DNA of 64,000 nucleotides from Bacillota bacterium (GTDB taxonomy: Bacteria; Bacillota; UBA4882; UBA8346), in the NCBI GenBank assembly GCA_023436305.1, contig JAEZJQ010000016.1:8536-72535 (forward strand). Direction: 5' to 3'. Below the pieces are notes generated by a model. The model was not told the DNA's origin. It did not search any database and worked only from the letters and a program-made list of their open reading frames with translations. The translations under genes were made by a program, and so were the position numbers. Positions 1 to 19,455 of this stretch are shown piece after piece. How positions within the stretch are numbered: the stretch's first letter is position 1; every line of letters begins with the position of its first letter.

Positions 1-1571
1 GCGTTGCCGATATCGCCGTCGGTGGGGAACCGGATATAATCGAACTGAATCTCATCGATTCCAAACGACTGCAACTCTTCGGCAATGGCCAGGTTGTAAT
101 CCCACACTTCGCTGCAAAACGGATCGACCCAATATTCCTTAGTGGACCAGGGCTTGTCAGCCGTCCGGTTCCATACGGCGTATTTGTATTTTTGGAAACG
201 GTGCAGCCGCGGGTCTTGAAATACCACCACCCGGGCAATGACGTATATGCCGTTTTCTTTTGCTTTTTGGATGAATTTCCCTATTTTAATGTTGGCCCGG
301 ACCGCACCCGCTTCATGAGGCGTCGACAGTTTTGTGTCATAGGTGACGTAGCCGGAATCATCCTTAAAATCAACCACAATGGAATTAAATCCGTATTTTT
401 TTAGAAATTTGAGATGAGTGTCGAATTTTTGGCCCGACACACTATCGGAGCGCAAATAAATCCCGTATTTGCCGGAAGCCCGGCTTAACCGTTCCAATTT
501 GGCCTGATCCGGCTGAAATGTTTTCACCACCATATCCAGATTGCGGGCCACCGGGGTGATCCGATTCGAGTTCAGCACCCCCAAACGGATGCCATTGCCG
601 GTTCCCATCTCCAGCAGCCAGGATTGATTGCTTTCAAGAATGTTCCCTTTGGTAAAAAACAACTGGTTGCACACCTTATCAAAATCAATAGCATTTGCAG
701 TGTTGGTTTCCGCATTATCGCCGGCAGCGCCTTCAACGGGATCATTTTGGCTGACAGCGGCGACATCCACGGGAGTTACCCCTTTCCGATCCTTGGGCAA
801 CAGATATAGGCCGTTTCCAAAGCCGCAAGAAAATAAAATGGTGTCCGGTTCCTGGGGAAGATAGGTCAGTGCGGCGATCTCTTCCCAAAATCCGGCCCCC
901 TGATAGAGAAACCGTAAATTTTCGGAGATATTCCGCCAGGTTCGTCCCCGGTCCCGGGTCTCATAAATTCCGGCAAACGACGTTCCGACGGCCAGGATGT
1001 TTTGATCATGGGGTGATAAAGCAACCGCAGTTAAATAAAGACTTTGGTTGGGACTTTTAAAAGGTAGCCGCTCCCAGGTGGCGCCGGAGTCTTCCGATAT
1101 AAAAAGCGAGGAAGACGTAGTCACCGCCACTCTTTGGGGATTGAGCGAATCCACCCCGAAAGCGGAAATTACCCTGACCTTCGGCTGGGTAAATGGGTAT
1201 ACCGATTTGGTGGGCAGGCCTTCGTTCCTGGCAGACCAGGTTTTCCCGGAATCGGCGGAAAATAAAAAACCATGCTCTCGGGATATACCGTAACCAAGCC
1301 CGGTATCCGTTTTCACCGCTTGTTCCGGCAGTACCGCATCCGGGTTGTTGGATGGAAGAACCATGGCGTTACCACTTTCCATATCCGCAAAGCCAATAAT
1401 CCCCATGGAAAAAGTAAACAATAAAATTAACGCGAAGCCAAACACTACTTTAACAATAGGCCGACAATATCCCCCATCCGTAGAAGCGTATGGCCTTTTT
1501 AAAAAGTAATCCCGTAAACTAACGCCAAATCCATTGATCTTTAAAACCAGTTTTTTAACAACTCGAACCAT
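1..1571 (-). CDS. Membrane-anchored BNR-repeat / DUF4015-like putative glycoside hydrolase (3' end runs off the window)
   Basis: Absent from the ORF track because no stop lies inside the window. My minus-strand translation from ATG 1571..1569 stays open to position 3 (523 codons): MVRVVKKLVLK... It has one TM segment (VVFGFALILLFTFSMGII) and three SxDxGxTW-type BNR motifs (SADSGKTW, SEDSGATW, TRDRGRTW). It then reads FNSIVVDFKDDSGYVTYDT...EYWVDPF...IQFDYIRFP, typical of the DUF4015/GHL TIM-barrel family. Confidence 0.75.
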   Translation of the reverse strand, partial: MVRVVKKLVLKINGFGVSLRDYFLKRPYASTDGGYCRPIVKVVFGFALILLFTFSMGIIGFADMESGNAMVLPSNNPDAVLPEQAVKTDTGLGYGISREHGFLFSADSGKTWSARNEGLPTKSVYPFTQPKVRVISAFGVDSLNPQRVAVTTSSSLFISEDSGATWERLPFKSPNQSLYLTAVALSPHDQNILAVGTSFAGIYETRDRGRTWRNISENLRFLYQGAGFWEEIAALTYLPQEPDTILFSCGFGNGLYLLPKDRKGVTPVDVAAVSQNDPVEGAAGDNAETNTANAIDFDKVCNQLFFTKGNILESNQSWLLEMGTGNGIRLGVLNSNRITPVARNLDMVVKTFQPDQAKLERLSRASGKYGIYLRSDSVSGQKFDTHLKFLKKYGFNSIVVDFKDDSGYVTYDTKLSTPHEAGAVRANIKIGKFIQKAKENGIYVIARVVVFQDPRLHRFQKYKYAVWNRTADKPWSTKEYWVDPFCSEVWDYNLAIAEELQSFGIDEIQFDYIRFPTDGDIGN

Positions 1572-1638
1572 ATCGTAACCTCAATCCGTGATGTATTAAA
1601 GGGAAATACTGCAAAAATAACAGATTTTTTACATGCTT

Positions 1639-2160
1639 TTAATCGTCATCATAATGAACCAGGCTTAAGATATCATATCCGCCAAGCTTTTCCCGGCCTT
1701 TTAAGATATCCAGTTCCACAATAAACGCAATACCTACAATTTCTCCCTTAAGCTGTTTTACCAATTGCGCCGTGGCGGATATGGTTCCCCCCGTCGCCAG
1801 TAAATCATCCACAATCAGGACTTTCTGGCCGGGTTGAATAGCGTCCAAATGAATCTCCAAAGTATCCTCGCCGTATTCCAAAGCATAAGAAGCTCTAGCC
1901 ACCGCTGCCGGAAGCTTACCGGGCTTACGGACCGGAACAAACCCGCAACCCAACTTGTAGGCTAACGGAGCCCCCAAAATGAAACCCCGGGATTCGGCGC
2001 CCACAATAATATCCGGGCGCTTATCTTTAAAATAAGCCGCAAATTCATCAATTACCTGGCGCAAGGCCGCGCCGTTCTTAAGTAAAGTCGTGATGTCCTT
2101 GAAGCTGATTCCCGGTTTTGGGAAATCAGGCACTTCCCGAATTGTTGATTTTAAATCCAT
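1639..2160 (-). CDS. apt: Adenine phosphoribosyltransferase
   Basis: [27 protein letters not shown]... with PRPP motif [13 protein letters not shown]. Start moved from 2178 to ATG 2160, which follows an AAAGGGGA RBS. Confidence 0.93.
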
Positions 2161-2180
2161 CGGCCAATCCCCTTTCATTA

Positions 2181-3563
2181 TTAATCACGTAAAGAATCCA
2201 CCCACGTTCGGGCCCTTTCCAATTGCAGTTTCACTTGATCAAAAGCCGTTCCCCCAAAAGAAGTCCGCGCTCCAACCACATGGGCCATATCCAGCGCCTC
2301 AAATACATCCTGAGCAATCAAATTTGAAGCCGCCTTAAATTCGGCCAAAGTGAGCTCTTCCAGACGTATCCCCCGGTCAATGCATTCTTTAACCAATTTA
2401 CCGGAGACTTCATGGGCCAACCGGAACGGTAATCCCTTCTTCGCCAAATAATCGGCCAAATCAGTGGCGTTCAAGTAACCGTCTTTGGTGGCATCCAGCA
2501 TTTTATCCCGCCGGAAGGAAAGGGTCTCAAGCATAGGGATGAAGATTTGCAAACAGCCCTTCACCGTATCAACGGCATCAAACAAGGTCTCCTTATCTTC
2601 CTGCATATCCTTGTTATAAGCCAGCGGCAATCCTTTCATAACAGTTAATATGCCAATCAAATCACCGTAAACTCTCCCAGTCTTACCCCGAATCAACTCG
2701 GCCACATCCGGATTCTTTTTTTGGGGCATGATACTGGACCCGGTGCTATAAGCATCATCCATTTCCACGAAACCAAACTCCATGGATGACCAGAGCACCA
2801 ATTCCTCGCACCAGCGCGACAGGTGCATCATGATCAGCGAGGCATCAAAGATAAACTCCGCCACAAAATCCCGATCACTGACCGCATCCAGACTGTTGGA
2901 CGCTACCATGGGGACATCAAGTTCTTTCGCCACTTGTTGCCGGTCAATGGGAAAACCGGTTCCCGCCAGCGCCCCGGCGCCCAAAGGAGAAACGGACACT
3001 CTTTTTAGGCAATCCTCCAGCCGCTCGTAATCCCGGCAGAACATTTCGAAATAGGCCAGCCAATGATGGCCCAGCAAAACCGGCTGAGCACGTTGCAGAT
3101 GGGTGTAGCCGGGTAGAATTGTTTCTTTTTCCCGTTCGGCGATGACGAGCAATACTTGAAACAGATTCACCAACAACCGCTTTATATCATTAATTTCCTT
3201 GCGTAAGTAAAGCCGGCCATCCAGGGCCACCTGGTCGTTGCGGCTCCGGGCGGTATGCAATTTGTTGCCCAAAACGCCGATCTCTTGAACCAGCAGCTTC
3301 TCCACATTCATATGAATATCTTCGGCGCCGGGTTCCCAGGTTACTTGTCCGGAATTGACTTTTTCAAGAATCTTCGTTAAACCGCCGATGATGGTCTCCG
3401 CTTCTTGTTTGGAAACGATCCCGGTATCGCCCAGCATTCTGGCGTGGGCTATACTGCCCCGGATATCCTCTCCGGCCAACCGGCAGTCGAAATGGATCGA
3501 AGAATGAAAATCATCCATTAACGACGCCGTATCTTTTTGAAACCGTCCTCCCCAAGCTTTCAT
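2181..3563 (-). CDS. argH: Argininosuccinate lyase
   Basis: [12 protein letters not shown]..., [12 protein letters not shown] fumarate-lyase signature, 460 aa. Confidence 0.95.
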
Positions 3564-3674
3564 GAACCATCCCTCCGGTGGTTATTAAAATGTGACCGAC
3601 AACAAAGAGAAAATATTCCACAAAAATAAGGAAAACCCTTTTTTCGCCAAGGAAAATCCATGTATACAGTAAGA

Positions 3675-3700
3675 CAAAAAGCCCCCGCAGTTATGCGGAG
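3675..3700 (-). terminator. Rho-independent terminator after paaK
   Basis: Minus strand reads CTCCGCA-TAAC-TGCGGGG (7-bp stem including one G-U pair) followed by CTTTTTGTC, about 85 nt after the paaK stop. Confidence 0.6.
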
Positions 3701-3785
3701 ACTCCTAATTTTCCACGAACCTTCCGTCTTGTATAGCTTAAGACCAGGAATGAGGCTCATATTGTCATCTTCAATTATTTTAAGT

Positions 3786-5093
3786 TTACAGATCCCGTTC
3801 ATCCATTACCCGCTTGGACTTCTTCTCACTGCGCGGCAATGTCCCTATGGGCACCACTTCCACTTCAATTTGAATGCCAATCCGTTTCTTAAAGTTATGA
3901 ATAACGGCTTCTTGTAACTTCCCGAAATCCGCTCCGCTTTCCCCTTCCACCCGGAGCAACATATGATCGCGGGCTTCCACCTTGGTCAGTTTTACCTGAT
4001 ACTCACTACTGGCGCCCTTCGTCTCCTTAAGCATATCCTCGATCTGTCCGGGATAGATATTTACGGCCTTCACCTTGATCATGTCGTCACTGCGTCCCAA
4101 AATACGGTCGATACGCGGATAAATACTGCCGCAGGGACAGGTTCCGGGGATAATCCGGGTCAAATCCCGGGTACGATAGCGAATTAACGGCGCGCCTTCC
4201 TTGGTTAATGTAGTGATCACCAGTTCACCCAGTTCCCCATCGGGCAAAACCTCTCCGGTCAAAGGATTAATAATCTCAAAATACAGGAAATCGGACCAAT
4301 AATGAATTCCCTGGTGAAATTTACAGTCAATGCCGATTCCCGGCCCATATATCTCAGTTAAACCATAAATATCATAAGTTTCAATTCCCAGTTCATCCTC
4401 GATCCGGGCCCGCAACTTATCTCCCCAGCGTTCTGAACCCATAATTCCTGTTTTAAGATGGATTTTATCTTTAAGATTCCGCCGGTTCACTTCCTCCGCC
4501 AGCAGCAAAGCATACGAAGATGTGCTGCACAGCACGGTGGATTTCAGATCAGTCATCATCTGTAACTGTTTGTCCGTATTCCCAGGCCCCATGGGAATAG
4601 CCATGGCCCCCAAGTACTCCACACCCGCCTGAAACCCGATCCCCGCGGTCCATAACCCATATCCCGGTGTAATCTGGACCCGATCCTCTTTAGTCAACCC
4701 GGCGAAAACATAGCAACGGGCGAACATCAGCGCCCAATCCGCCACATCCTTTTTGGTATACGGAATAATTATCGGCTGCCCGGTGGTTCCCGAAGAAGAA
4801 TGGATACGCACCACATCCTGATCCGGCACAGCCTGTAACCCCAGTGGATACGCTTCCCGCAACTCCTCTTTGGTGGTAAACGGCAACTTCGCCAGATCAT
4901 CCAGCGTCCGGAAAGATTCCGGCTGAAACCCCGCCGCTTCCAATTTACGGCAGTAAAAAGAGTTTTGATACCCAAATACCCTTTCCAACAACCGTTTTAT
5001 CGAATTAAACCAAAATACCGTCGTATCCGCGCTCGTTAACCGGGAATACATTGCGTCATGAAAGTCTTCGTATTCCGGATGTTTGCTAATCAT
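3786..5093 (-). CDS. paaK: Phenylacetate-CoA ligase family (aryl-acetate / indoleacetate-CoA ligase)
   Basis: AMP-binding core SSGTTGQPIIIPYTKKD, YGLTE, 435 aa, typical PaaK length and N-terminus. Confidence 0.85.
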   Translation of the reverse strand: MISKHPEYEDFHDAMYSRLTSADTTVFWFNSIKRLLERVFGYQNSFYCRKLEAAGFQPESFRTLDDLAKLPFTTKEELREAYPLGLQAVPDQDVVRIHSSSGTTGQPIIIPYTKKDVADWALMFARCYVFAGLTKEDRVQITPGYGLWTAGIGFQAGVEYLGAMAIPMGPGNTDKQLQMMTDLKSTVLCSTSSYALLLAEEVNRRNLKDKIHLKTGIMGSERWGDKLRARIEDELGIETYDIYGLTEIYGPGIGIDCKFHQGIHYWSDFLYFEIINPLTGEVLPDGELGELVITTLTKEGAPLIRYRTRDLTRIIPGTCPCGSIYPRIDRILGRSDDMIKVKAVNIYPGQIEDMLKETKGASSEYQVKLTKVEARDHMLLRVEGESGADFGKLQEAVIHNFKKRIGIQIEVEVVPIGTLPRSEKKSKRVMDERDL

Positions 5094-5210
5094 TGTCGTT
5101 CCCCCTAATGAAGGGTAAAAGGTGAAATTAGAAGTTTCGGCCTTTACTCTTCACGTTTTATTTGGCCATCATATCTTTAATCCTAATTTTCACCCTTCAC
5201 ACTTCAAATT

Positions 5211-5801
5211 TCAAACTTTTATTTCCCTTCCCAGCTCAAAAGCTTTTTCGTTAACAGCTCTGGCCCGTTCAGGCACCATATCCAGCAAAACGGCTTTTAT
5301 TTCGTCCGCTGTTACCGGAAGCAATCCGGTGCTCGCCAGAGCTCCAAGCATGACGGAATTGACGGTCCGGTAATTTCCGGCGACGGTTGCCAATTCAAAA
5401 GCATTAATAAACATCATTTGTACCGGTAACGCGCATAGATATTTTTTGATATCATCCAGCGGGTAAGCCGAAGTTCCCAAAGCTACTGTGACAGGGCGAA
5501 TGGGGTGGATATTCACCAGTCCGATCCCGGATGATTTAATGAGCCCGCAAGCTCTTTGCGCTTCCGCCGGTTCGAAACCCAACAAGATATCGGCGCCCTG
5601 ATTCCCTATCAGCGGTCCGAAGTCCTTGGCCCCGATCCGGACATGGCTCTGTACCGAGCCTTCCCGTTGCGCCATTCCAATAGTTTCAGCCGTCCGAACC
5701 GTCAATCCGGCGTTTAAAGCCGCCTGTCCCAGCACCCGCGACGCTAGAACCGTACCTTGCCCGCCAACACCGGCAATCAAGATATCCATTTTTTCAAACA
5801 C
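5211..5801 (-). CDS. iorB: Indolepyruvate:ferredoxin oxidoreductase, beta subunit
   Basis: ILIAGVGGQGTVLASRVLG... pyruvate/ketoisovalerate oxidoreductase gamma-type fold, 196 aa, directly downstream of iorA. Confidence 0.88.
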   Translation of the reverse strand: MFEKMDILIAGVGGQGTVLASRVLGQAALNAGLTVRTAETIGMAQREGSVQSHVRIGAKDFGPLIGNQGADILLGFEPAEAQRACGLIKSSGIGLVNIHPIRPVTVALGTSAYPLDDIKKYLCALPVQMMFINAFELATVAGNYRTVNSVMLGALASTGLLPVTADEIKAVLLDMVPERARAVNEKAFELGREIKV

Positions 5802-5982
5802 CGATAATAGCCCTCCAATTTAAAATCAATTACAAGTTATTCAGTTACAAGTCACGAGTAACCACAAGTTATTGAGTTACGAGTTACAATTTTTAGTCAA
5901 AAAGATTCGTTCAAGATATTCTATGATTTCATCGTTACGATCGTCATTCAAGCTTTCCATTTCAAACTTCATACTTCAAACC

Positions 5983-7791
5983 TCAAACTTCCGTAATCGC
6001 GCCCTTCGGGCAGATGTAGCCACATAGCCCACAGCCGTGACAGGCCGGGCTAATCTGAATTCCGTCTTGTTCCCCGGTTTCACGGTAAAAGGCCGGGCAA
6101 CCCAGTTCCCGGAGGCAGAGGCCGCAATTGGAACATAACTCGCGGTCAATCCGGAAGCGCCGCGATGGGCGAAAAGTATTGGCACAAGGTGTCCGCATGA
6201 CGACAGCCGCTACTCCGGGGAATTCCAAAGCCCGTCGTACCACGGACTCCGCCGCCTTTAATTCGAGAGGATTGACCGTTTCCACGAATTGTACTCCACA
6301 GGCTTTCAAAATGGCCACCAAATCAATGGCCGTTCCAATATCTCCATTGGCGCATTTGCCGATGCCCGGGTGAGGCTGATGTCCGGTCATGGCGGTGGTA
6401 CTATTATCAAGGATTATCATCTTGATGGGATGCCGATTATATACAGCGTTAATCACCCCGGGAATCCCGGTATGAAAAAACGTCGAATCTCCGATAAAGG
6501 CAATCACCGGACGCTCCGGTTCGGTTCGTAACAACCCTTGGGCAATGGTCAGACCGGCGCCCATGCATAGGCAGGTGTCCACCATAGCCAAAGGCGGAGC
6601 ATTTCCCAATGTATAACAGCCGATATCACCGGTGTAAATTGCATTCCGCCCTTTGGTGGCCTTTTTCACGGCATAAAAGGAAGCCCGATGAGAACAACCG
6701 GCGCATAAAACCGGAGGGCGAACCGGCAATTCCGGAACTTTACCTTCGCTAACAGCCGGAACCCCATCGGCAACCCCCGAAATCTTCGCCAAAACACCAG
6801 CCAGTAATCCGGCGCTATACTCCCCGGCCCGTGGCAGTTCACCGGAATGTTTGCCGTGAATTCTGCCCCGGAAACCAACTTGTCCGGCCACCGTGATCAA
6901 TCCGTCTTCCAATACCGGATCAAGTTCCTCAATCACCACCACTTCTTCCACCTGGTTTAAGAAATCCCGGGCTATCGAAACCGGAAACGGGTGAGGATTT
7001 CCAATCTTCAAAACGGTGGGTTTAATTCCTAAAACCGCCGCCGCTTCCTGGGCATATAACGCCGCAACTCCGCCCGTTACAATGCCCAGTTTGGTTCCGG
7101 TTTGAATCCGGTTCCAGTGACTAGCGCTAAATTCTTGGGCTAATTTTATCTGTTGCTCTTCGAGCCATTGGTGTTTAAGGAAAGAAAGGCGGGGAAAGAT
7201 CACCCACTTGGAGTCCTTCACGAATCCATCCGGTTTGTGAACCGGGACTTCCGAATATTCGATCCCGGCGGTGGCATGGCAGACCCGGGTCGTGGGCCGT
7301 AAGAAAACCGGGATACCGTAACGATGGGATAATTCGAATGCATCCTTGACCATTGCTATAGCTTCTTCGGGTGAGGAAGGATCAAAAACCGGTAATTTGG
7401 CAAATTTGGCAAATGATCGGGTATCCTGTTCGGTTTGGGAAGAATGAGGCCCGGGATCATCGGCCACCGCTACCACTAAAGCGCCTTTAACACCGATATA
7501 TGCCAAGCTCATCAGCGGATCGCTCGCCACATTCAAGCCAACCTGCTTCATGGCCACCAGACTGTATGCCCCGGAATAAGCCGCCCCGGCCGCCACTTCC
7601 ATGGCCACCTTTTCATTCACCGACCATTCCACATAATAATCAAACTCGGAAACGTGTTCGTCGGACCATTCCGCCAGCGTCCCGATAATCTCCGATGAAG
7701 GGGTTCCGGGATACGCAGCCGCGAAATTCAATCCGGCCTCAACCGCCCCCCGGGCGATAGCTTCATTTCCCATTAATAGTTTTTTGATCAA
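5983..7791 (-). CDS. iorA: Indolepyruvate:ferredoxin oxidoreductase, alpha subunit
   Basis: 602 aa. N-terminus LMGNEAIARGAVEAG, TPP-binding GDIGCYTLG...GDSTFFHTG, C-terminal 2x[4Fe-4S] CxxCxxC...CxxCxxCxxxCP. Confidence 0.9.
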   Translation of the reverse strand: MIKKLLMGNEAIARGAVEAGLNFAAAYPGTPSSEIIGTLAEWSDEHVSEFDYYVEWSVNEKVAMEVAAGAAYSGAYSLVAMKQVGLNVASDPLMSLAYIGVKGALVVAVADDPGPHSSQTEQDTRSFAKFAKLPVFDPSSPEEAIAMVKDAFELSHRYGIPVFLRPTTRVCHATAGIEYSEVPVHKPDGFVKDSKWVIFPRLSFLKHQWLEEQQIKLAQEFSASHWNRIQTGTKLGIVTGGVAALYAQEAAAVLGIKPTVLKIGNPHPFPVSIARDFLNQVEEVVVIEELDPVLEDGLITVAGQVGFRGRIHGKHSGELPRAGEYSAGLLAGVLAKISGVADGVPAVSEGKVPELPVRPPVLCAGCSHRASFYAVKKATKGRNAIYTGDIGCYTLGNAPPLAMVDTCLCMGAGLTIAQGLLRTEPERPVIAFIGDSTFFHTGIPGVINAVYNRHPIKMIILDNSTTAMTGHQPHPGIGKCANGDIGTAIDLVAILKACGVQFVETVNPLELKAAESVVRRALEFPGVAAVVMRTPCANTFRPSRRFRIDRELCSNCGLCLRELGCPAFYRETGEQDGIQISPACHGCGLCGYICPKGAITEV

Positions 7792-7843
7792 CGAAAGTCA
7801 CCTCAAAAAATAATGCATTATTTGTCAGACATTCGAGAATAAC

Positions 7844-8635
7844 TCATACCGCCCATCCCAGCAACCGAAACGAAACCGCCGCCAAAACCAAAATAACACA
7901 ACCAGCGCCGGCAAAATAATCAGCCGGGCCAAAGTTCAACCGGCGCAAATAAGTCCGGGGGCCCAGGCCATAACCCCGGGTTTCCATAGCTATGGCCAAA
8001 CGTTCCGCTTTTTTTAAGGCAATAATCACCAGAGGAGTTATCAAAGGCAAATACGCTTTCACCTGTTTGACCGGGTTTTTGGAAGTCATTTCAAATGCCC
8101 GCGTTTTTTGAGCTTGCAAGATGTTTTCAATTTCCACAAAAAGCGTGGGAATGAAACGCAATGAAGTGACAAACATTAACGCGTATTGATAAGGAACTTT
8201 TAAGCGTTCGACTATCACCATTACCAAATCCCGCGATTGGGTCGTTGCCATTATCAAAGGCAACGAAAGCCCAAACACCGACATTCTGGCCACCATAACC
8301 AGCCCAATCATTAAACTATCGCGGTTAATGACCCCCAGCCAACCCAATACGGGAATATTCCTTGGAATATAACGTAACAATTCAGGACCGTCATGGGAAA
8401 ATAAAAGTTGCAAAACCATCATAAATAATCCGGCAAAAAACAACAAACGGCAATACGCCCAAAAAATAGTCGTCGCTTTGGCCAAACGGAATAACAGATA
8501 AATCAACCCAATCACGGCCATTAAAATAAATAAATTAGAAAAGACGATCCCCAGGCAAAAAAAGCAACATAACCCGATAAGTTTGGTCATCGGATGGAAA
8601 CGGTGGATCGGTGAATTCGTCGCCAAATATTCCAT
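7844..8635 (-). CDS. ecfT: ECF transporter transmembrane (T) component
   Basis: 263 aa polytopic protein of CbiQ/EcfT type (HPMTKLIGL..., ARxxA...ETRGY coupling helices), downstream of two EcfA ATPases. Confidence 0.85.
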   Translation of the reverse strand: MEYLATNSPIHRFHPMTKLIGLCCFFCLGIVFSNLFILMAVIGLIYLLFRLAKATTIFWAYCRLLFFAGLFMMVLQLLFSHDGPELLRYIPRNIPVLGWLGVINRDSLMIGLVMVARMSVFGLSLPLIMATTQSRDLVMVIVERLKVPYQYALMFVTSLRFIPTLFVEIENILQAQKTRAFEMTSKNPVKQVKAYLPLITPLVIIALKKAERLAIAMETRGYGLGPRTYLRRLNFGPADYFAGAGCVILVLAAVSFRLLGWAV

Positions 8636-8652
8636 AAAAACACCTCATTAAA

Positions 8653-9504
8653 TCATACGGCTTCGAGTGATTCTTGAATTGTATGACCTTTTAACCGGAA
8701 AACTTCCAGTAATTCATCAACACTGATAATATCACCGGGTATGTTATAATTGCCGAGCAGTTGCGCCAAGCGCGTAATTTGCGGCGGTTTTAGATGCGTT
8801 TCAGCCAACAGGGCATCTTGTGATAATACCTCACGAGGTGTTCCGTCCGCTAATATCTCACCTTTTCCCATCAGAATAACCCGTTTTGCATACAAAGCCA
8901 CCAACTCCATATCATGAGTGATGAAAATAATCGTATGCCCCCGATGGTTTAAAGCCGCCACCAAATCCATGATCTGAATCGCTTCGTGATAATCCTGCCC
9001 GGTGGTAGGCTCATCCAAAATTAAAATCTCTGGCTCCATGGCCAATACCGAAGCCAGCGCCACTCGTTGCCGTTGCCCCTTGCTTAAGGATAATGGCGAC
9101 TCCGCCCGCAAATGTTTAATTCCCACTTTCTCCATGGCTGTCTCAGTCCGATGCCCGATTTCTTCCGGTGTTAGTTTTAAGTTACCAGGGCCAAATGCCA
9201 CTTCTTTTTCCACGCTACTTAAAAATAACTGATGATCCGGGTTTTGAAACACATAACCTACTTTTTGAGCAAGTTGGGCAATGGATTGCTCACTGGTATC
9301 CCGGCCGTTAATCAAAATACTGCCGGACTCGGGCCGTAATAACCCGATTAAATGTTTTACCAAGGTCGTTTTACCGGCCCCATTTTGCCCGATAACCGCC
9401 AAAAAATCTCCCTTTTTAATCTCCAGATTGATTCCATTAAGAGCTATCTTTTCATTACCGTAACGTTGCGTTAATTCATTAATTTTAATAATATTCACAG
9501 CCAT
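8653..9504 (-). CDS. ecfA2: ECF transporter ATPase EcfA2
   Basis: Walker A GQNGAGKTT, signature LSKGQRQRV, Walker B ILILDEPT, C-terminal ECF-type extension. Confidence 0.88.
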   Translation of the reverse strand: MAVNIIKINELTQRYGNEKIALNGINLEIKKGDFLAVIGQNGAGKTTLVKHLIGLLRPESGSILINGRDTSEQSIAQLAQKVGYVFQNPDHQLFLSSVEKEVAFGPGNLKLTPEEIGHRTETAMEKVGIKHLRAESPLSLSKGQRQRVALASVLAMEPEILILDEPTTGQDYHEAIQIMDLVAALNHRGHTIIFITHDMELVALYAKRVILMGKGEILADGTPREVLSQDALLAETHLKPPQITRLAQLLGNYNIPGDIISVDELLEVFRLKGHTIQESLEAV

Positions 9505-9506
9505 CT

Positions 9507-10379
9507 CTACTCATCATCCTCGCCTTTTAGGAGAACCTCCAACTGTTCATGGGCTTTATCCAGCGTCACCGGGAGTTCTCCCTCATTCTCATGAAACAAT
9601 CCCAATTTCCCAAAAAATTCAGTAACTTGAGGCGGTTTTAATCCAAGAGATTGAATCTTCCGCCATTCTTTAAAAATTTTTACCGGTTCATCATTCATCA
9701 CGATTTGGCCGTTTTCCATAATCAGCAACCGGTCGCAAAAACGGGCCAAGTGTTCCATTTTATGTTCAATGATGATGATTGTAACCCCGAATTCCGCATT
9801 TAATTTTTCTAAAACCGCAAATACTTCGTCGGTGCCCACCGGGTCTAATTCCGCGGTAGGTTCATCCAGGACAATAATTTCCGGCCGCATGGCCAAAACC
9901 GCCGCGATTGCTACTCTTTGTTTTTGCCCGCCGGATAACGACTCGATGGTGGCATGCCGCAAGTGCTCTATCCCTACTGATTTTAAGGCGAATTCTATCC
10001 GAAACAAAATTTCCTCCGGAGCCACTGCTTGATTCTCCGGTCCAAAAGCCAGTTCTTCCTCAACACTCGCCGAAACCAACTGCGATTCGGGATCTTGAAA
10101 CACTGAACCCACCCATCGGGAAATCTCCTGGCCGGAAAGATCGAAAACGGATTGCCCTTTTATGGATACATCTCCACAATAAGTTCCTTCGAGAAAATAA
10201 GGAATAATGCCATTTATGCAATACGATAAAGTTGTCTTCCCGGCGCCCGTTGAACCGGTGATACCGATAAATTCTCCTTTACCGACCGAAAGCTGAATTG
10301 AGTGAAGCGCCGGTTTATTGGAACCGTTATAAGTGAAACTTAGATCCTTGATTTCGATAATTCCATCCCGGTTCAACAT
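9507..10379 (-). CDS. ecfA1: ECF transporter ATPase EcfA1
   Basis: Walker A GSTGAGKTT, LSGGQKQRV, IIVLDEPT. Start moved to ATG 10379 (MLNRDGIIEIKDLSF); the track start at 10430 is a TTG with an implausible Cys-rich extension. Confidence 0.85.
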   Translation of the reverse strand: MLNRDGIIEIKDLSFTYNGSNKPALHSIQLSVGKGEFIGITGSTGAGKTTLSYCINGIIPYFLEGTYCGDVSIKGQSVFDLSGQEISRWVGSVFQDPESQLVSASVEEELAFGPENQAVAPEEILFRIEFALKSVGIEHLRHATIESLSGGQKQRVAIAAVLAMRPEIIVLDEPTAELDPVGTDEVFAVLEKLNAEFGVTIIIIEHKMEHLARFCDRLLIMENGQIVMNDEPVKIFKEWRKIQSLGLKPPQVTEFFGKLGLFHENEGELPVTLDKAHEQLEVLLKGEDDE

Positions 10380-10451
10380 ACTCAAAATGAAAACCTCCAC
10401 CAAATGGAGGCGGCAGCAGTTTTTCCACAAAAACCACCGCCGTCCCGTGAT

Positions 10452-10982
10452 CTACTTCTTTAAAAGTTTCTTGGCCGGAAAATAAAGAACTTGAGCAATA
10501 ACTGCATTCAATACGGTTAACGTAAATACTGTTATTAACATCTGGGCGATAACCGCCACCGGTACCAAACGAAAAATATAATAAACTCCTACAAAAGTTA
10601 AACCGCTGGCTAACGTGGCCAAGGCGGTACTAATCAAAGGCGTTAATACAAAAGTTTTATTTTTCGGTTCCAACAAATAAATAATCCCTAAACAAACGAC
10701 AGCACCAACCGGTTCACTCACAAAATTCACGGGATAACCGGCCTTGGAGGATACCATGCAAACCAAACCGGCTACAATACCAATGCCCACAGCGACTCCA
10801 AATTTAGGCCGGATTAATACTATGGCCAGACAATACATGGCAATCGCGAAATTAGGAGTAATTCCAAACATGGGGGGAACAGTTAACCGGATTACCGCCC
10901 CTGCGGCAATCAAAAGCGCCGTTACCGTTAAATCAATAGCCTTCAACCCTTTTTTCTCAACTACTCTCGTCTCAACACTCAT
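10452..10982 (-). CDS. ECF S (substrate-capture) component, TrpP-like
   Basis: 176 aa with about 6 TM segments, first gene of the ECF block. Its layout resembles B. subtilis TrpP/YhaG as I remember that sequence. Substrate assignment is tentative. Confidence 0.6.
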   Translation of the reverse strand: MSVETRVVEKKGLKAIDLTVTALLIAAGAVIRLTVPPMFGITPNFAIAMYCLAIVLIRPKFGVAVGIGIVAGLVCMVSSKAGYPVNFVSEPVGAVVCLGIIYLLEPKNKTFVLTPLISTALATLASGLTFVGVYYIFRLVPVAVIAQMLITVFTLTVLNAVIAQVLYFPAKKLLKK

Positions 10983-11070
10983 TACTACTCCTCCTAAAAT
11001 AATTAAATTTATTATACGCCGCGCGCGCCCATACGGCGTACAGTCACGGCACTTTCACCGGCGAACCCGG

Positions 11071-11104
11071 AATAATAAAAGCCAGGCAAGAAGCACCTGG
11101 CTTT
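11071..11104 (-). terminator. Leader terminator/attenuator upstream of the S-component gene
   Basis: Minus strand reads AAAGCCAGG-tgcttcttg-CCTGGCTTT followed by TATTATT. It lies about 90 nt upstream of the ATG at 10982 and about 150 nt downstream of a good promoter. Confidence 0.55.
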
Positions 11105-11250
11105 ACAAAACGGATTAATTTAAGCAATTAACGTCTGCGCCACTGTACTGTTCTTCAACTCATCTCAACTTCTTTAACAATGAACTTCCGTATTACAGCT
11201 CTCATTTCTTGTTAAAAACTCAACTCATATACCATACTACTTTTAACATA

Positions 11251-11279
11251 AATATAACAAAACTAATGGCGAAAGTCAA
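11251..11279 (-). promoter_or_regulatory. Sigma-A-type promoter for the ECF/ior block
   Basis: Minus strand reads TTGACT-17 nt-TATATT. Confidence 0.45.
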
Positions 11280-11402
11280 TCGAACAAATTTCCATAAAAA
11301 ACGTCATTTTGTTGATTTTACACTGTTTTCCCTAATTTAGTATGGGAACGGAAAAATTTTAATAATATATAATTCTGATTTATACAATTCCGATATTTTC
11401 AA

Positions 11403-12398
11403 TTATTCCCCTAAAATTAACGGCAAAATCTCCATCAGATCCCGGCATTCCTGGTACATAAACGGTCGCGCCCCTCCGGCGGCAATGTTGCCACCACAAA
11501 TCCCAATTCCGGCAAATCCGGCCAGGCGAATCGCAATGATTCCCGCCGCTGAGTCCTCAATCCCGATGATCCGGTTCCTGGAATCCCAATCCAAACCCAA
11601 CCCAGTTCCCGCCGCTTCCGCATAAAGCCAAGGGTGTGGTTTTGGAGTAAACTCCCCCAGTGTTCCCATCTGTCCTCGACGGCAACTGAAACCGGCGCAA
11701 ATTATGGCATCATAATAATCAAGCGGATCGCCCAGGCCCATCACCCGAAACGCCGCCATAATTTCCGGCCAGGCTTTTTCATATAAACCGGAAGTAACCA
11801 AACCGATTTTAATACGGTACGCTTTCAGAGCGATCAAAAACTCTTTCAAATGAGGGCTGGGTACGAAAAAGCGGGCCGGGCCCCTGCCTGCCAAAATTTC
11901 CTTCATTTGATGCCGGGTAAGTTCATAATAGATACGCCGGGCTTCTTCCAATGAATGATCCGGACAATATTTTTCGATACAGTATTGCAGGTGTTCAGAA
12001 ACCGAATGCCCCGAAATATAAGGCTCATCAGCGTCTTCCAATTCAAAATGCCGGTCTTTTATTAATTGGGCAATTGTAAGTTCAATCATCCGCATCCAAA
12101 ATTCTTCACTTCGCACTGTGGTCCCGTCGAGATCCATCAATACCGCTCGCGCCGGACTCTCGAATGAAACCTCGGACAGTTTGTATATGGCCGGATAACC
12201 GAATGCCGATTTAATATAAACCAAGGTTTTATCATCAAAGGCAATCCATTCCGTTTTTCGATCAAGCGGCGTTAAAATCCGCCGCACCCCATCAACCCCT
12301 AGCCGCCAAATCCCCGCCCCTCCCTCCGTTAAATTAAGCAAGTCATCGCGGTATGATTCATGGATATAGCCAAGGCCGGGAATTCTATCACCATTCAT
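11403..12398 (-). CDS. HAD-superfamily hydrolase with N-terminal extra domain
   Basis: HAD motif I LMDLDGTT, motif II GLVTSG, motif IV GIEDSAAG. The N-terminal part of about 85 aa is unassigned. Confidence 0.7.
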   Translation of the reverse strand: MNGDRIPGLGYIHESYRDDLLNLTEGGAGIWRLGVDGVRRILTPLDRKTEWIAFDDKTLVYIKSAFGYPAIYKLSEVSFESPARAVLMDLDGTTVRSEEFWMRMIELTIAQLIKDRHFELEDADEPYISGHSVSEHLQYCIEKYCPDHSLEEARRIYYELTRHQMKEILAGRGPARFFVPSPHLKEFLIALKAYRIKIGLVTSGLYEKAWPEIMAAFRVMGLGDPLDYYDAIICAGFSCRRGQMGTLGEFTPKPHPWLYAEAAGTGLGLDWDSRNRIIGIEDSAAGIIAIRLAGFAGIGICGGNIAAGGARPFMYQECRDLMEILPLILGE

Positions 12399-12684
12399 TC
12401 GATTCGCCTTTCAAATTGATAATCATCTCTAGTATATGCCTTAACCAAAAAGGGTTATGCTTTACCAGAGATTAACCCGGCCGAAAATCCATCGGTACTA
12501 TCGATTTATAATTCAAATATTTCGTTCACGGATAACCTGCAAAATTGGTAGATTCAACAGTACAATTATTTTTAGCCAGAATTAAAAAGTTTTTGTTGTA
12601 TTTTATAATTAATTGCTTTATTCTGAAACTATAAGACGAATTTTAACGGACAATAAAAAATAATAGTGGGTGGAGATTGATCCC

Positions 12685-13125
12685 ATGCAAATTACTCAAG
12701 AATTAAATAATATTGAAAATTCAAAACACAGTTCTCCCATAAAGGGTGGACGGAACCTATTGCTGATGGACGATGAGGAGTTTCTGCTGGAGTTGTTGAA
12801 GGAAGTCCTGGAAAACATGAATTACAGCGTGGAACTATCGAAAAACGGCGAGGAAGCCATCCAAAAATACTTAACCGCCATGGAATCCGGGCAGATAATT
12901 GATGCCATCATCCTGGACCTAACGGTGAAAGGTGGCATGGGCGGCAAAAAAACCATCGAGAAACTGCTGGAAATCAACCCTCAAGTGAAAGGAATAGCCT
13001 CCAGCGGTTATTCCGAAGACCCGATTTTTGCAAATCCGAAAGAATATGGTTTCTGCGGAGCGATTAAAAAGCCGTTCAGCATTGAGAATTTATGCGAGGT
13101 ACTGGAGCAGGTGTTAAATGAGTAA
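12685..13125 (+). CDS. Stand-alone response-regulator receiver protein
   Basis: LLLMDDEE...DAIILDLTVKGGMGG...KKPF receiver signature with no output domain. Start set at ATG 12685, after a GGTGGAG RBS. Confidence 0.85.
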   Translation: MQITQELNNIENSKHSSPIKGGRNLLLMDDEEFLLELLKEVLENMNYSVELSKNGEEAIQKYLTAMESGQIIDAIILDLTVKGGMGGKKTIEKLLEINPQVKGIASSGYSEDPIFANPKEYGFCGAIKKPFSIENLCEVLEQVLNE

Positions 13126-13127
13126 CC

Positions 13128-14168
13128 TCAAGCCTGATATTTCACCACCGTAATCTTCGGGTATTGATATAAATTATAGGTCTTCCCTATCTCCCGGCCT
13201 TGAATCACCTTCACCCGGCATTCAAACCGGGAAACAAACTCTACGACTACCGTGTCTCCATCACTCAACCCCAAGACACTTCCCACCGGATACGGCGCCA
13301 TAATCCGCAAGAAACTATCCATCACCGTCTTGTCATACTTCACCATCGCCTTGGTTTTTAATTCCTGTATTACTTGATTCGGGGACATTCCTTTATAATA
13401 GCCGCGATAAACCATCGTGTCGAAATCATCGGCGACGGCGATAACCTTGGCGAAACGGTGAATTCTTTTGCTGGTCAATCCCCGGGGGTAACCGCTGCCG
13501 TCTTCCCGCTCGTGGTGCTGCAGCGCCACGTGAGCCGATAAAAAATTCAACTCCGTCTTCTTTTTCAACAGTTCATACCCCACCCGGGGATGGTTTTTAA
13601 TCAGTTCCGAATCCTGGGGATTGTAAAGATTCAGTTTCCGGCCATCTTTACGATCGCAAAACAGCATCCCCATATCGTGCAGCATGGCCCCAATACCTAA
13701 TTTGGCCAGTTCAACCCGGTTAAAACCCATTTCCGTCGCTATCATCAGTGCCACGATACAAACATTCACCGCATGGGCGAAAATATAATTCTCCTGCGAG
13801 CGAATATCGATGGTATTATACACAAAATCCAATTTACTGAAGAGCTGGCTGATAATTTCCTCAACCACAATGGATATATTTCGCAGATTCACATTCTCGT
13901 CATTTTCGAATAACCTGGTGGTTTTTTTCAACAAGCTCCGCGCTTTAAACCGGGTCTCATCATCCACCTGATCATAAATAATGCTGTCTTCCGCATCACC
14001 GGGATCAAGAACATAGATATGATTATACTTTAACTCTTGAATGCGGGTGATATAATTCGATTTCAACTCAATATTCGGGCGTAATAAAACCCCGCCGTCA
14101 TCTTCGCGATAGATGGTCCGCGCCAATTTCATCCCCGGTTTAATCTCAGCAATCGGAATAATATGCAT
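13128..14168 (-). CDS. HD-GYP domain protein (putative c-di-GMP phosphodiesterase)
   Basis: HAVNV...LHDMGM...HHEREDGSGYPRGL motifs. Confidence 0.85.
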   Translation of the reverse strand: MHIIPIAEIKPGMKLARTIYREDDGGVLLRPNIELKSNYITRIQELKYNHIYVLDPGDAEDSIIYDQVDDETRFKARSLLKKTTRLFENDENVNLRNISIVVEEIISQLFSKLDFVYNTIDIRSQENYIFAHAVNVCIVALMIATEMGFNRVELAKLGIGAMLHDMGMLFCDRKDGRKLNLYNPQDSELIKNHPRVGYELLKKKTELNFLSAHVALQHHEREDGSGYPRGLTSKRIHRFAKVIAVADDFDTMVYRGYYKGMSPNQVIQELKTKAMVKYDKTVMDSFLRIMAPYPVGSVLGLSDGDTVVVEFVSRFECRVKVIQGREIGKTYNLYQYPKITVVKYQA

Positions 14169-14279
14169 TAAAGTCCTCCGTGAAATTTTTTACATGATTA
14201 CAAAAATATACCTGATAATTCCCGATTCTTCCTTGGAAAAATAATTATTAATCGCATCGTCTAAAAAAGGAGTGAAAAC

Positions 14280-14519
14280 ATGCTAACCTGTGAAATCTCG
14301 TTAGCCCCGTTGGAAACCGTAAGTTCCGATCGGATTATTAACCAGTCCATTCAAGCTCTGAAACAGACCGGAGTAAAACATGAAGTGGGAAATATGAGTA
14401 CGTATCTTTACAGTGAAACCCCGGATAAAATTTGGGAGGGCATTCAAGCAATTTATAATGTCGCCCAAAGCGCCGGCACGGAATTTTCGATGTCAATCAA
14501 TTTAAGTAATAATACCTGA
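14280..14519 (+). CDS. MTH1187/YkoF-like (DUF77) small protein
   Basis: The pattern EISLAPLETVSS..I..SI..L...GVKHEVGNMST matches the DUF77 thiamine-binding-like family as I remember it. AAGGAG RBS upstream. Confidence 0.55.
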   Translation: MLTCEISLAPLETVSSDRIINQSIQALKQTGVKHEVGNMSTYLYSETPDKIWEGIQAIYNVAQSAGTEFSMSINLSNNT

Positions 14520-14633
14520 AAACGAAGTGATAAACCTTAATATTTAGAACTTTATACCGTCTTTCAACCCTCTCTTTCCTGTATCGAACAAAAAAAGGAC
14601 CAACTTTATACTTTTCCACCTGAATTAAAAAAA

Positions 14634-14656
14634 ATCCCGCTGTCAAAACAGTGGGA
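14634..14656 (+). terminator. Terminator hairpin
   Basis: ATCCCGCTGT-caaa-ACAGTGGGAT (one G-T pair), A-run before it and TAACTTTTTAT after it. Confidence 0.5.
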
Positions 14657-14942
14657 TAACTTTTTATAACTGGTTTAATTTTCAAGAATTACCTGCCGTT
14701 ACTAGATACATCAAAATACAATATACATCACTAATTAAGCTTGCTCCAACTTGACTTTTGCCAAGTTTGCGCTTATCATTATGTTATAATTATCCAAAAA
14801 AGTTTCTTTTTTAATTGACACGACATGATTGGTATCACCACCACCCATGAATCGGCTTTGGAAAAGCCGCGCATGAACCTATTTTCGTGTTATCTTTTGG
14901 AATAATTTAATTTATAATATCCCTTCAAGGAGGATTCGTTTC

Positions 14943-16250
14943 ATGAGTTTGATCGTCGCCAAATTTGGGGGTACTTCGCTGGCTAATGCCGCCCAATTTC
15001 GTAAAGTTCATTCAATAATTATGGAAAACCCGGAACGCCGGTATATTGTCCCGTCCGCTCCCGGAAAACGCAATTCGGATGATTATAAAATCACTGATTT
15101 ATTATATCTTTGCCACGCTCATGTAAACCAGGCCATTTCCTTTGATGAAGTTTTCAATGTAATCAGCAACCGATACCTGGAGATCATTTCGGACCTCGGC
15201 CTTTCCCTTGATCTTAAACCCTATCTCGCTGAAATCAAAGAAAAAATCGCTGAAGGAGCCTCCGCTGATTATGTGGCCAGCCGCGGCGAGTATTTAAACG
15301 GCATAATCCTCGCCAAACTCATTGGTTACGATTTTGTGGATCCGGGCCAAGTGGTTATTTTCAACGACCGGGGTCAGCTCGATCTGGAACTCGCTCAAAA
15401 TAACCTGGCCAAAGTTCTGGCCAAATCCCCTAAAGCAGTGGTACCCGGTTTTTACGGTGCCACTTCCACCGGTCAAGTCAAAACCTTCTCCCGGGGAGGA
15501 TCGGATATCTCCGGTTCCTTGGTCGCCCGTAGCGTAGAGGCAGATCTTTATGAAAACTGGACTGATGTTTCCGGGTTTCTTATGGCCGACCCCCGTATCG
15601 TCAAAGATTCGAAGCCGATGGCCAGGATTACTTACCGTGAATTGCGGGAGTTAGCTTATATGGGAGCAACAGTGCTTCATGAAGAATCGGTCTTTCCGGT
15701 GCGCCAAGCCGGAATACCCATCAATATCAAAAACACCAATGATCCGGGACATCCCGGGACCATCATTGTCAACGAAGCCGAATCTAATGATTCCATAACC
15801 GGAATAGCCGGTAAAAAGGATTTTACGGTAATCGCCGTTGAAAAAGAAATGATGAACTCCGAACTCGGATTTGGCAGGAAACTGCTCTCCATCATGGAGG
15901 CCAACACTGTGTCCTTCGAGCATATTCCTACGGGCATCGATACCATGTCCGTGGTCATTGCTGATTCCCAATTGAACGGGAAACTTGAAAAAATATTGGA
16001 AGAGATCCGTAACCAATGCAAACCGGATTCGCTAGAAGTTTATCCCAATATGGCCCTCATTGCCACTGTTGGCCGGGGCATGGTCTATACTCCCGGCATC
16101 GCCGCCAAACTGTTTAACGCCTTGGCCCAGTCCAATATCAACGTACGCATGATCGACCAGGGTTCCAGTGAATTAAATATCATTGTCGGTGTCCATACCA
16201 CCGATTTCGAAAAAGCCGTCCAAGCCATATACCAAGCGTTTGTACATTAA
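14943..16250 (+). CDS. lysC: Aspartate kinase
   Basis: MSLIVAKFGGTSLANA..., C-terminal ACT domains, GGAGG RBS. Confidence 0.93.
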   Translation: MSLIVAKFGGTSLANAAQFRKVHSIIMENPERRYIVPSAPGKRNSDDYKITDLLYLCHAHVNQAISFDEVFNVISNRYLEIISDLGLSLDLKPYLAEIKEKIAEGASADYVASRGEYLNGIILAKLIGYDFVDPGQVVIFNDRGQLDLELAQNNLAKVLAKSPKAVVPGFYGATSTGQVKTFSRGGSDISGSLVARSVEADLYENWTDVSGFLMADPRIVKDSKPMARITYRELRELAYMGATVLHEESVFPVRQAGIPINIKNTNDPGHPGTIIVNEAESNDSITGIAGKKDFTVIAVEKEMMNSELGFGRKLLSIMEANTVSFEHIPTGIDTMSVVIADSQLNGKLEKILEEIRNQCKPDSLEVYPNMALIATVGRGMVYTPGIAAKLFNALAQSNINVRMIDQGSSELNIIVGVHTTDFEKAVQAIYQAFVH

Positions 16251-16252
16251 AC

Positions 16253-16287
16253 GATAGCGTCTGGCGTATTAGACACCAGACGCTATC
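16253..16287. terminator. Bidirectional hairpin between convergent lysC and the methylase gene
   Basis: Perfect 12-bp stem GATAGCGTCTGG / CCAGACGCTATC with an 11-nt loop. Confidence 0.6.
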
Positions 16288-16289
16288 CC

Positions 16290-17378: not shown

Positions 17379-17595
17379 AGGCCTATTTCAATCGTTTACG
17401 TAATTTCGATAATCCATTGGAGATCATCCTAAAGTTTTTTATCGATCCTGCCGATGTAAAAGAATAAAATATAATTTACAGTTTAGCTTTATTCCAAAGT
17501 CTACCATACCCCATACATTAATCCATTCGGCATCGTGGCAACCATTTGCCGCATACGACCGCTTAACCATTTCGGCACATATCATTCAGCAATTA

Positions 17596-18708: not shown

Positions 18709-18877
18709 GAAAATCACCCTTTCAATTACGATTCTAAACTAAATTTAAACCGCCGCAATACATTTGATTGGAAATAATTGTTTCTTAAGCATTTTGACCG
18801 TTTCAACCGAATAATATGGTAAGGATATTCTTAAGGGGCCGGATTAATTGTTACTAATTTTTGAATAACTTTTTACT

Positions 18878-19444: not shown

Positions 19445-19455
19445 GGTTAAAAACT

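Follow-up and report, generated by a model that had tools for sequence, protein, structure and literature searches.

A candidate tryptophan-acquisition operon of the Bacillota that links a TrpP-like ECF importer with indolepyruvate oxidoreductase and an aryl-acetate-CoA ligase

The window analysed here is a stretch of 64,000 nucleotides (nt) from a member of an uncultured family of the Bacillota (assembly GCA_023436305.1, contig JAEZJQ010000016.1, positions 8,536 to 72,535). Open reading frame (ORF) listing combined with profile searches identifies seven consecutive genes on its minus strand, which encode an importer of the energy-coupling factor (ECF) type with its S component, an indolepyruvate oxidoreductase (IOR) and a PaaK-family ligase, and which we read as a candidate operon for the acquisition of tryptophan. 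An earlier note, made from the letters of the DNA alone, had proposed this set of genes in this order, and all seven were recovered with Pfam and NCBIfam profiles. In the direction of transcription the genes are:

10452..10982, minus strand: ECF S component of the TrpP family, 176 aa (Pfam PF17099)
9507..10430, minus strand: ecfA, ECF ATPase (PF00005, 97 bits), likely true start ATG 10376
8653..9504, minus strand: ecfA', second ECF ATPase (PF00005, 128 bits)
7844..8635, minus strand: ecfT, T component of the CbiQ family (PF02361, 113.5 bits)
5983..7791, minus strand: iorA, indolepyruvate:ferredoxin oxidoreductase alpha subunit, with thiamine pyrophosphate and 2x[4Fe-4S] (TIGR03336; Pfam POR_N, TPP_enzyme_C, Fer4)
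5211..5801, minus strand: iorB, IOR beta subunit (PF01558, POR)
3786..5093, minus strand: PaaK-family AMP-forming aryl-acetate-CoA ligase, 435 aa (Pfam AMP-binding, AMP-binding_C_2), called paaK below

The S component matches PF17099 with 45.6 bits against a gathering cut-off of 27.2, its residues 17-174 spanning profile positions 4-168 of 169, and the profile search found no S-component family besides TrpP at E<=0.001. This bears out the earlier description of the protein as TrpP-like, no vitamin-specific family having been matched. The predicted model has six helices (predicted local distance difference test, pLDDT, 83.8), and its top 15 matches in the PDB are all ECF S components, namely RibU, ThiT, PanT, FolT, HmpT and BioY, with template modelling (TM) scores of 0.5-0.69, probabilities of ~1.0 and weak E-values of 0.03-0.3; the predicted fold thus fits ECF S components in general and no one member in particular. 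Against the sequences of solved structures the S-component profile gave a chance-level match only; tryptophan is the putative substrate, proposed from the tryptophan-specific regulation. The two ATPases have as their best NCBIfam matches ECF_ATPase_1 for ecfA (TIGR04520, 254.7 bits, under the equivalog cut-off of 315) and ECF_ATPase_2 for ecfA' (TIGR04521, 276.5 bits, under the cut-off of 330). Since the genome encodes two T components in addition to the ecfT of the cluster, three in all, and only one copy of TrpP, the ECF module is best regarded as dedicated; the proposal that it is the shared housekeeping module of the genome was rejected in view of the two other T components and of its position inside a tryptophan-regulated cluster. 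Group I ECF importers such as BioMNY and CbiMNQO likewise have their S, A, A' and T genes in one cluster, and their S fold is matched here, but the present system would belong to an amino acid or indole substrate family rather than to the vitamin and metal importers, and its cluster is joined with metabolic enzymes.

Among the enzymes, IorA passes the equivalog cut-off of TIGR03336 (IOR_alpha; 759.6 bits against 650.9), and IorB falls just under that of TIGR03334 (IOR_beta; 191.1 bits against 205.8) and matches PF01558 with 118.5 bits against 27.4. The ligase is filed as a PaaK-family aryl-acetate-CoA ligase and not as PaaK proper, because it lies below the cut-off of TIGR02155; its PDB matches to Burkholderia PaaK1 (2y27, E 3e-106) and to a Bacteroides protein (4r1l, E 8e-105) are equally close. 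A 2026 study describes the IOR-adjacent AMP-forming ligase of Bacteroides as an arylacetate-CoA ligase (PMC13285125). The clusters of iorAB with such a ligase in Bacteroides and methanogens represent the same three-gene module, for which a biosynthetic direction has been proposed (PMC13285125), but no transporter and no amino-acid-specific sensor is reported for them, whereas here the module is tied to a putative tryptophan importer and to tryptophan-specific control of the kind exerted by the trp RNA-binding attenuation protein (TRAP) or a T-box, which would define the aromatic amino acid served. The genome also has a second iorAB set with 41% identity to that of the cluster and a different leader, as well as further PaaK paralogues, which fits a specialisation of the linked set.

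The elements that are likely to control the cluster lie upstream of the S gene and across its start:

11251..11279, minus strand: promoter-like site, TTGACT and TATATT separated by 17 nt, a TG preceding the -10 (extended -10)
11105..11250, minus strand: leader with TRAP-type triplets in degenerate form, TAG, GAG-tt-GAG, then AAG-tt-GAG-at-GAG-ttg-AAG-aa-CAG-ta-CAG
11068..11104, minus strand: leader terminator hairpin of 11 pairs with U-run, the hairpin sequence kept in most family relatives
10956..10996, minus strand: cluster of seven (G/U)AG triplets over the Shine-Dalgarno sequence and start codon of the S gene and its first nine codons

The promoter-like site (11279-11251) matches at 10 of 12 positions and is the best one within the region scanned, and a promoter of the TTGAC..TTGTTATA type stands at the homologous place in relatives. 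The leaders of these relatives run from the promoter through 8-12 (G/U)AG triplets with spacers of 2-3 nt to a conserved terminator hairpin, and the same holds in other Clostridia; an unbroken chain of at least six triplets occurs in 40 of the 80 leaders of the species-level survey described below, against a mean of 2.0 after shuffling. As judged from sequence, the features of a TRAP site are clear in relatives and in this window only partly so. The leader of the window matches no Rfam family, and the T-box model (RF00230) gave no match at E<=1 in positions 1-20000.

The triplets at the S start are better preserved. They begin at 10993, 10987, 10980, 10973, 10968, 10963 and 10958, with spacers of 3, 4, 4, 2, 2 and 2 nt, and this stretch is nearly letter-for-letter the same in relatives whose S proteins are only ~45% identical. 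Codons 4-6 of the S gene (GAG ACG AGA) are 92-100% codon-identical in the sequences of 13 relatives, and none of the other degenerate columns with a conserved amino acid reaches 100% codon identity; the near-invariance of these codons therefore points to selection on the RNA at the S start. The layout over ribosome site and start codon resembles that described for B. subtilis trpP, which is reportedly repressed by TRAP at the level of translation. TRAP itself (mtrB) is encoded in the genome (PF02081, 132 bits, G000:C35:12397-12594) and is present in 37 of 41 related genomes. The gene lies here directly upstream of a complete trpE-to-trpA operon. In this region (G000:C35:12040-12630, locus L041) the 336 nt that separate mtrB from trpE contain dispersed (G/U)AG triplets and a hairpin of the terminator type, and mtrB may thus lead the operon that TRAP attenuates.

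Two B. subtilis systems offer the obvious comparisons. The TRAP-regulated trpP (yhaG) shares with the present S gene the PF17099 family, the triplets around the ribosome site and start codon, and a TRAP in the same genome; yet in B. subtilis TrpP stands by itself as an S component and depends on the shared housekeeping ECF module, whereas here there are a dedicated EcfAA'T, a leader terminator and three conversion genes, and only about 1 in 10 residues would be expected to match between the two S components, the Pfam score being moderate. The attenuator of trpEDCFBA has the same succession of promoter, triplet array and intrinsic terminator as is seen in the relatives and in the trp operon of this genome, but the array of the window is eroded and split.

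The gene order is conserved well beyond this genome. When 40 related genomes were searched with the S component, it was found in 17 of the 24 that belong to the same family and, outside that family, in a single genome. Twelve same-family loci have the order S-ecfA-ecfA'-ecfT-iorA-iorB-paaK, and the locus of the other family is cut off after iorB; the order is held wherever the contig is long enough, save in three genomes in which paaK follows directly after ecfT and iorAB is missing. A species-level survey by pattern scan, with one genome per species, yielded 80 loci (70 informative and 10 uninformative). The full order was found at 37 of the 80 loci; 5 run into the contig end after iorA has begun, 4 read S-ecfAA'T-paaK, 3 have the permuted order iorAB-paaK-S-ecfAA'T (Pseudobacteroides group), 21 have the transporter only, and 10 are uninformative. 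The transporter is therefore linked to ior/paaK at 49 of the 70 informative loci. The full order is present, for example, in Pelotomaculum propionicicum, Desulforamulus putei, D. aeronauticus, a Desulfosporosinus metagenome-assembled genome (MAG) and Petroclostridium sp. X23, and likewise Clostridium sp. MCC353 and chh4-2 and rumen Clostridia. Conservation of the order in relatives, which the earlier note had singled out as a check on its proposal, thus extends through the family and across several orders of the Bacillota, and, being shared by dozens of species, the arrangement goes far beyond what chance would produce.

The same survey bears on an alternative in which the locus consists of two adjacent but separate units, a TRAP-controlled tryptophan importer and a housekeeping aryl-2-oxoacid module, iorAB-paaK, of broad specificity for phenylalanine, tyrosine and tryptophan with signals of its own, their adjacency reflecting a shared ancestry of the region and not a common task. 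The solitary transporters speak for such a separation, as does the tree of S components, in which linked and unlinked forms are intermixed so that at least 12 changes are needed; next to S components of one kind, conversion genes were thus acquired or lost several times. The transporter half also looks replaced or strongly diverged, its identity to the relative of the same genus being 37-54% where iorA, iorB and paaK have 77-80%, and its G+C is lower; promoter-like hexamers lie in the long spacers, and the characterised IORs accept all three aryl-pyruvates (PMC13285125). Against it, linkage has been kept across several orders, even where the order is permuted. The gap between ecfT and iorA is short in many species, often <60 nt, ~30 nt in locus L106 and 52 nt in the window, and is without a terminator. 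The second iorAB of this genome, with its different leader, could cover general needs, and unlinked iorAB-paaK operons have tryptophan-specific sensors of their own, as described in what follows. Two separate units are accordingly an unlikely account of the locus.

In gut and rumen Clostridia and in Oscillospiraceae a T-box stands in place of the TRAP-type leader. Matches to RF00230 occur in L102 (E 5e-17), L087 (E 8e-15) and L106 (E 2e-12); these scores lie under the Rfam gathering score yet are highly significant. The specifier in all three is UGG, the tryptophan codon, and L087 and L106 carry the full seven-gene order. The core motif of the T-box occurs in 14 of the 80 leaders. Such UGG T-boxes, which stand before the orthologous clusters L087, L102 and L106 and before an unlinked iorAB-paaK in L123, are like the tryptophan T-box leaders known from Firmicutes, among them the one that controls trpP of C. 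difficile (PMC7438776), whereas no T-box was matched in positions 1-20000 of the window, whose lineage probably uses TRAP. The reach of both sensors to the enzyme genes was followed in five genomes whose TrpP-ECF cluster lacks ior/paaK, by locating the best iorA homologue in each. In at least four of these genomes the homologue is the first gene of an iorA-iorB-paaK operon, and in three of the five genomes the leader of the unlinked genes has a tryptophan-type sensor, namely TRAP-type triplets and a terminator before iorA in L124 (a Pelotomaculum MAG) and L131 (Desulfofundulus thermobenzoicus) and a UGG T-box (E 3.7e-17) before iorAB-paaK in L123 (Oscillospiraceae). Judging by these leaders, iorAB-paaK is part of the tryptophan regulon even away from the transporter. 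As an observation of its own, the longer ecfT-iorA gap of three Pelotomaculum-type loci (L058, L061 and L079) contains, besides a promoter-like site of its own, UAG/GAG triplets in a row and a terminator, which on the face of its motifs amounts to a separate tryptophan-type attenuator for the enzyme genes.

The function that we consider fairly probable for the cluster is that of a tryptophan-acquisition operon, in which an importer is combined with the salvage of indoleacetate and which is on when tryptophan is scarce and off when tryptophan has activated TRAP, the 11-mer RNA-binding attenuation protein. In this scheme we infer TRAP binding, the co-transcription of the seven genes, the direction of IOR and the substrates of the S component and the ligase. 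With tryptophan plentiful, TRAP would act twice: bound to the (G/U)AG triplets of the leader it would let the terminator at 11104-11078 form, and bound to the seven triplets at the S gene it would cover the ribosome site and start codon. With tryptophan scarce, EcfA, EcfA' and EcfT together with the TrpP-family S component would take up external tryptophan or a close indole compound, with high affinity in the case of tryptophan. The PaaK-family AMP-forming ligase would convert indole-3-acetate to indoleacetyl-CoA, IorAB would use reduced ferredoxin and CO2 to carboxylate indoleacetyl-CoA reductively to indolepyruvate, and an aminotransferase encoded elsewhere would complete the route to tryptophan. 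The scheme agrees with classical labelling studies, according to which rumen anaerobes reportedly make tryptophan from indoleacetate by reductive carboxylation, and with the assimilation of aryl acids, for which Methanococcus is said to use IOR. The anabolic direction is favoured because the genes appear to be expressed under tryptophan shortage and because an AMP-forming ligase is of a type that drives acyl-CoA formation; the 2026 study argues in the same way that ligases of this kind favour acyl-CoA synthesis and that IOR hence has a biosynthetic role (PMC13285125). The earlier note had left the direction open, and of its two options the reductive, biosynthetic one is favoured by the TRAP sites, the tryptophan T-boxes and the sensors on unlinked iorAB-paaK. 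Its candidate substrates fared unevenly: tryptophan stands as the governing metabolite by virtue of the regulation, while phenylacetate is disfavoured because the sensors are tryptophan-specific.

The opposite direction would make the cluster a catabolic unit, in which imported tryptophan is transaminated, IorAB oxidatively decarboxylates indolepyruvate to indoleacetyl-CoA and indoleacetate is excreted, as in the fermentation of aromatic amino acids. IOR was first described as an enzyme of peptide fermentation and is usually so annotated, and the B. thetaiotaomicron enzyme contributes to the formation of phenylacetate (PMC13285125); an importer beside a degradative enzyme is, moreover, a common design. 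Yet TRAP with tryptophan and the T-box with uncharged tRNA-Trp are both arranged to switch genes off when tryptophan is plentiful, and since both permit expression only at low tryptophan or low charged tRNA-Trp, a catabolic unit is highly unlikely. A reversed AMP-forming ligase would also conserve no energy, whereas fermenters use ADP-forming synthetases or kinase routes (PMC13285125).

A further alternative keeps the anabolic direction and changes the cargo, so that the S component would take up indole-3-acetate or indolepyruvate instead of tryptophan and the seven genes would form a linear pathway from uptake to indolepyruvate. The dedicated ECF module stands with conversion enzymes at the 49 linked loci, the S component is only a moderate match to TrpP (at the score given above) and has no solved relative, and in four species the ligase alone remains attached to the transporter after the loss of iorAB, which keeps this option alive. 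Transport of tryptophan is favoured, since S components of these clades are also found, behind the same sensors, where ior/paaK is lacking, which is simplest if the S component carries tryptophan. TrpP of B. subtilis, the founding member of the family, is linked genetically to tryptophan uptake, which likewise counts against import of a precursor, and protonated indoleacetate crosses membranes without a transporter. We regard precursor import as improbable. The same doubtful standing attaches to its wider consequence, that a TrpP-like S component imports indole-3-acetate or indolepyruvate and that the operon, governed by TRAP or a T-box, is the genetic basis of the route from indoleacetate to tryptophan for which genes have been wanting; if true, this would be the first ECF transporter for an aryl acid.

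Several findings weigh against the tryptophan-acquisition reading, both in the window and in the wider survey. The leader array of the window is eroded and split, with only ~6 canonical triplets and long gaps, and its alignment with same-genus leaders (last block GAGacGAG) shows a short deletion and the change of two GAG to GAA and CAG. Folding gave no clear switch between antiterminator and terminator: the energies of the leader are no better than those of shuffled sequences, and although the last triplets pair with the 5' arm of the terminator when the 3' arm is withheld, the z-score of this alternative pairing is unremarkable. Across the genome, chains of at least six triplets number 5, the one at the S start among them, against 7 in a shuffled genome; most of the real chains are heptamer repeats, and the genome-wide scan was rejected as stand-alone evidence for TRAP sites. 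The ligase fails the PaaK equivalog TIGR02155 (414 bits against a cut-off of 646.3), the cluster is without an aminotransferase gene, and salvage would not be essential because the genome has the complete trp operon. In the survey the transporter stands alone at 21 of the 70 informative loci, and inspection of the leaders found no obvious tryptophan sensor before iorA in L122 and L125. Within the cluster, weak promoter-like hexamers lie in the long spacers at 5947-5918 and 5214-5186, and together with the hairpin between the S gene and ecfA they make separate or uneven transcripts possible.

The literature searched yielded no paper that links TrpP or ECF transport with IOR, or IOR with tryptophan-specific control by TRAP or a T-box; the components are all of known kinds, and what is new is their coupling and regulatory logic. 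The window contributes a case of the TRAP type from an uncultured family of the Bacillota, a case whose leader array is eroded, whose transporter half has diverged much more than the enzyme half and whose enzyme genes are separated by genome-specific repeat insertions. IorAB and PaaK-type ligases of the Bacillota are routinely annotated as serving the degradation of aromatic amino acids, and two unrelated sensors of tryptophan starvation argue instead for salvage. Under the tryptophan-acquisition reading, one set of IOR paralogues would be assigned to a specific aromatic amino acid, the TRAP regulon would extend beyond Bacillus, and the ECF transporters, otherwise importers of vitamins and metals, would gain an amino-acid-linked and enzyme-coupled case. 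It would also supply candidate genes for the physiological observation of the 1960s that tryptophan can be made from indoleacetate. Indoleacetate is a common fermentation product and a plant or gut signal, and the modelling of its turnover by anaerobic communities in digesters, sediments, rumen and gut would change.

The remaining features of the cluster are its spacers and its end:

10385..10416, minus strand: short hairpin with U-run between the S gene and ecfA, covering the ecfA ribosome site
5802..5982, minus strand: iorA-iorB spacer, 181 nt, of heptanucleotide repeats specific to this genome, unstructured (z +1.5)
5094..5210, minus strand: iorB-paaK spacer, 117 nt, folding into a single long hairpin that stops 5 nt short of the paaK ribosome site
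~3672..3706, minus strand: intrinsic terminator of the cluster, a 12-bp G+C-rich stem followed by UUUUU (z of the region -2.7)

In relatives iorA and iorB are ~10-30 nt apart. The hairpin of the iorB-paaK spacer has -32 kcal/mol and a z of -3.0, only 1 of 200 shuffles folding as well, and folding of the 181-nt and 117-nt spacers gave no hairpin followed by a U-run in either, hence no canonical terminator. The ATPase domain of ecfA begins ~20 codons inside the TTG-10430 frame, so that the gene probably starts at ATG 10376 and the gap between the S gene and ecfA is ~75 nt, not 21. The statement in the earlier note that gaps are short except for two spacers is thus right about the two spacers, which are real, and needs amending for the S-ecfA gap; its remark that no internal terminator is seen by eye agrees with the folding of both long spacers but holds only approximately, since the S-ecfA gap does contain a short hairpin and U-run. 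The cluster has a HAD hydrolase gene upstream and argH downstream. An ORF of 80 aa without a family match (3560-3802, minus strand) overlaps the paaK stop and the cluster terminator and is probably not a gene.

Heptamer units such as GTTTGAA, GAGTTAC and AATAACT fill the iorA-iorB spacer and open the iorB-paaK spacer, and arrays of these units are spread over the genome. A period of 7 is the commonest among short tandem repeats genome-wide, with 236 arrays at low threshold, and one array of 22 units lies at G000:C143:10565-10713. An interpretation of the long spacers as mobile elements present in repeated copies was rejected, since only heptamer-repeat words of 15-25 nt recur elsewhere and not the whole spacers.

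The two halves of the cluster differ in composition and divergence. Identity to the same-genus genome G001 is 45% for the S component, 49% for ecfA, 54% for ecfA' and 37% for ecfT, and 77-82% for iorA, iorB, paaK and argH, and G+C is 42-45% in the transporter half (7844-10982) against 51-54% in the enzyme half (3786-7791). On the S tree the S component of the window groups with those of two further MAGs in a small, long-branched clade. These comparisons suggest that the transporter module was replaced or has diverged fast in situ and that the cluster is a mosaic. A different rearrangement is seen in one MAG clade (L046, L054, L055 and L056, also L024, L032 and L033), in which iorAB has been deleted and S-ecfAA'T-paaK is left, with a 48-aa piece of iorA persisting in L032 and a piece of iorB in L054. 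Locus L060 lies on a contig labelled 'uncultured Geobacter sp.' and has a Bacillota-like TrpP-EcfAA'T that the S tree places inside the family of the window; it may be a binning error or a transfer. Finally, the leader of the second iorAB (G000:C128:39680-42395) has a GGTGAGTCCAA-like word in three copies and then a hairpin with a U-run, and it may be another attenuator, of the RNA-binding-protein or riboswitch type, for a different aryl acid.

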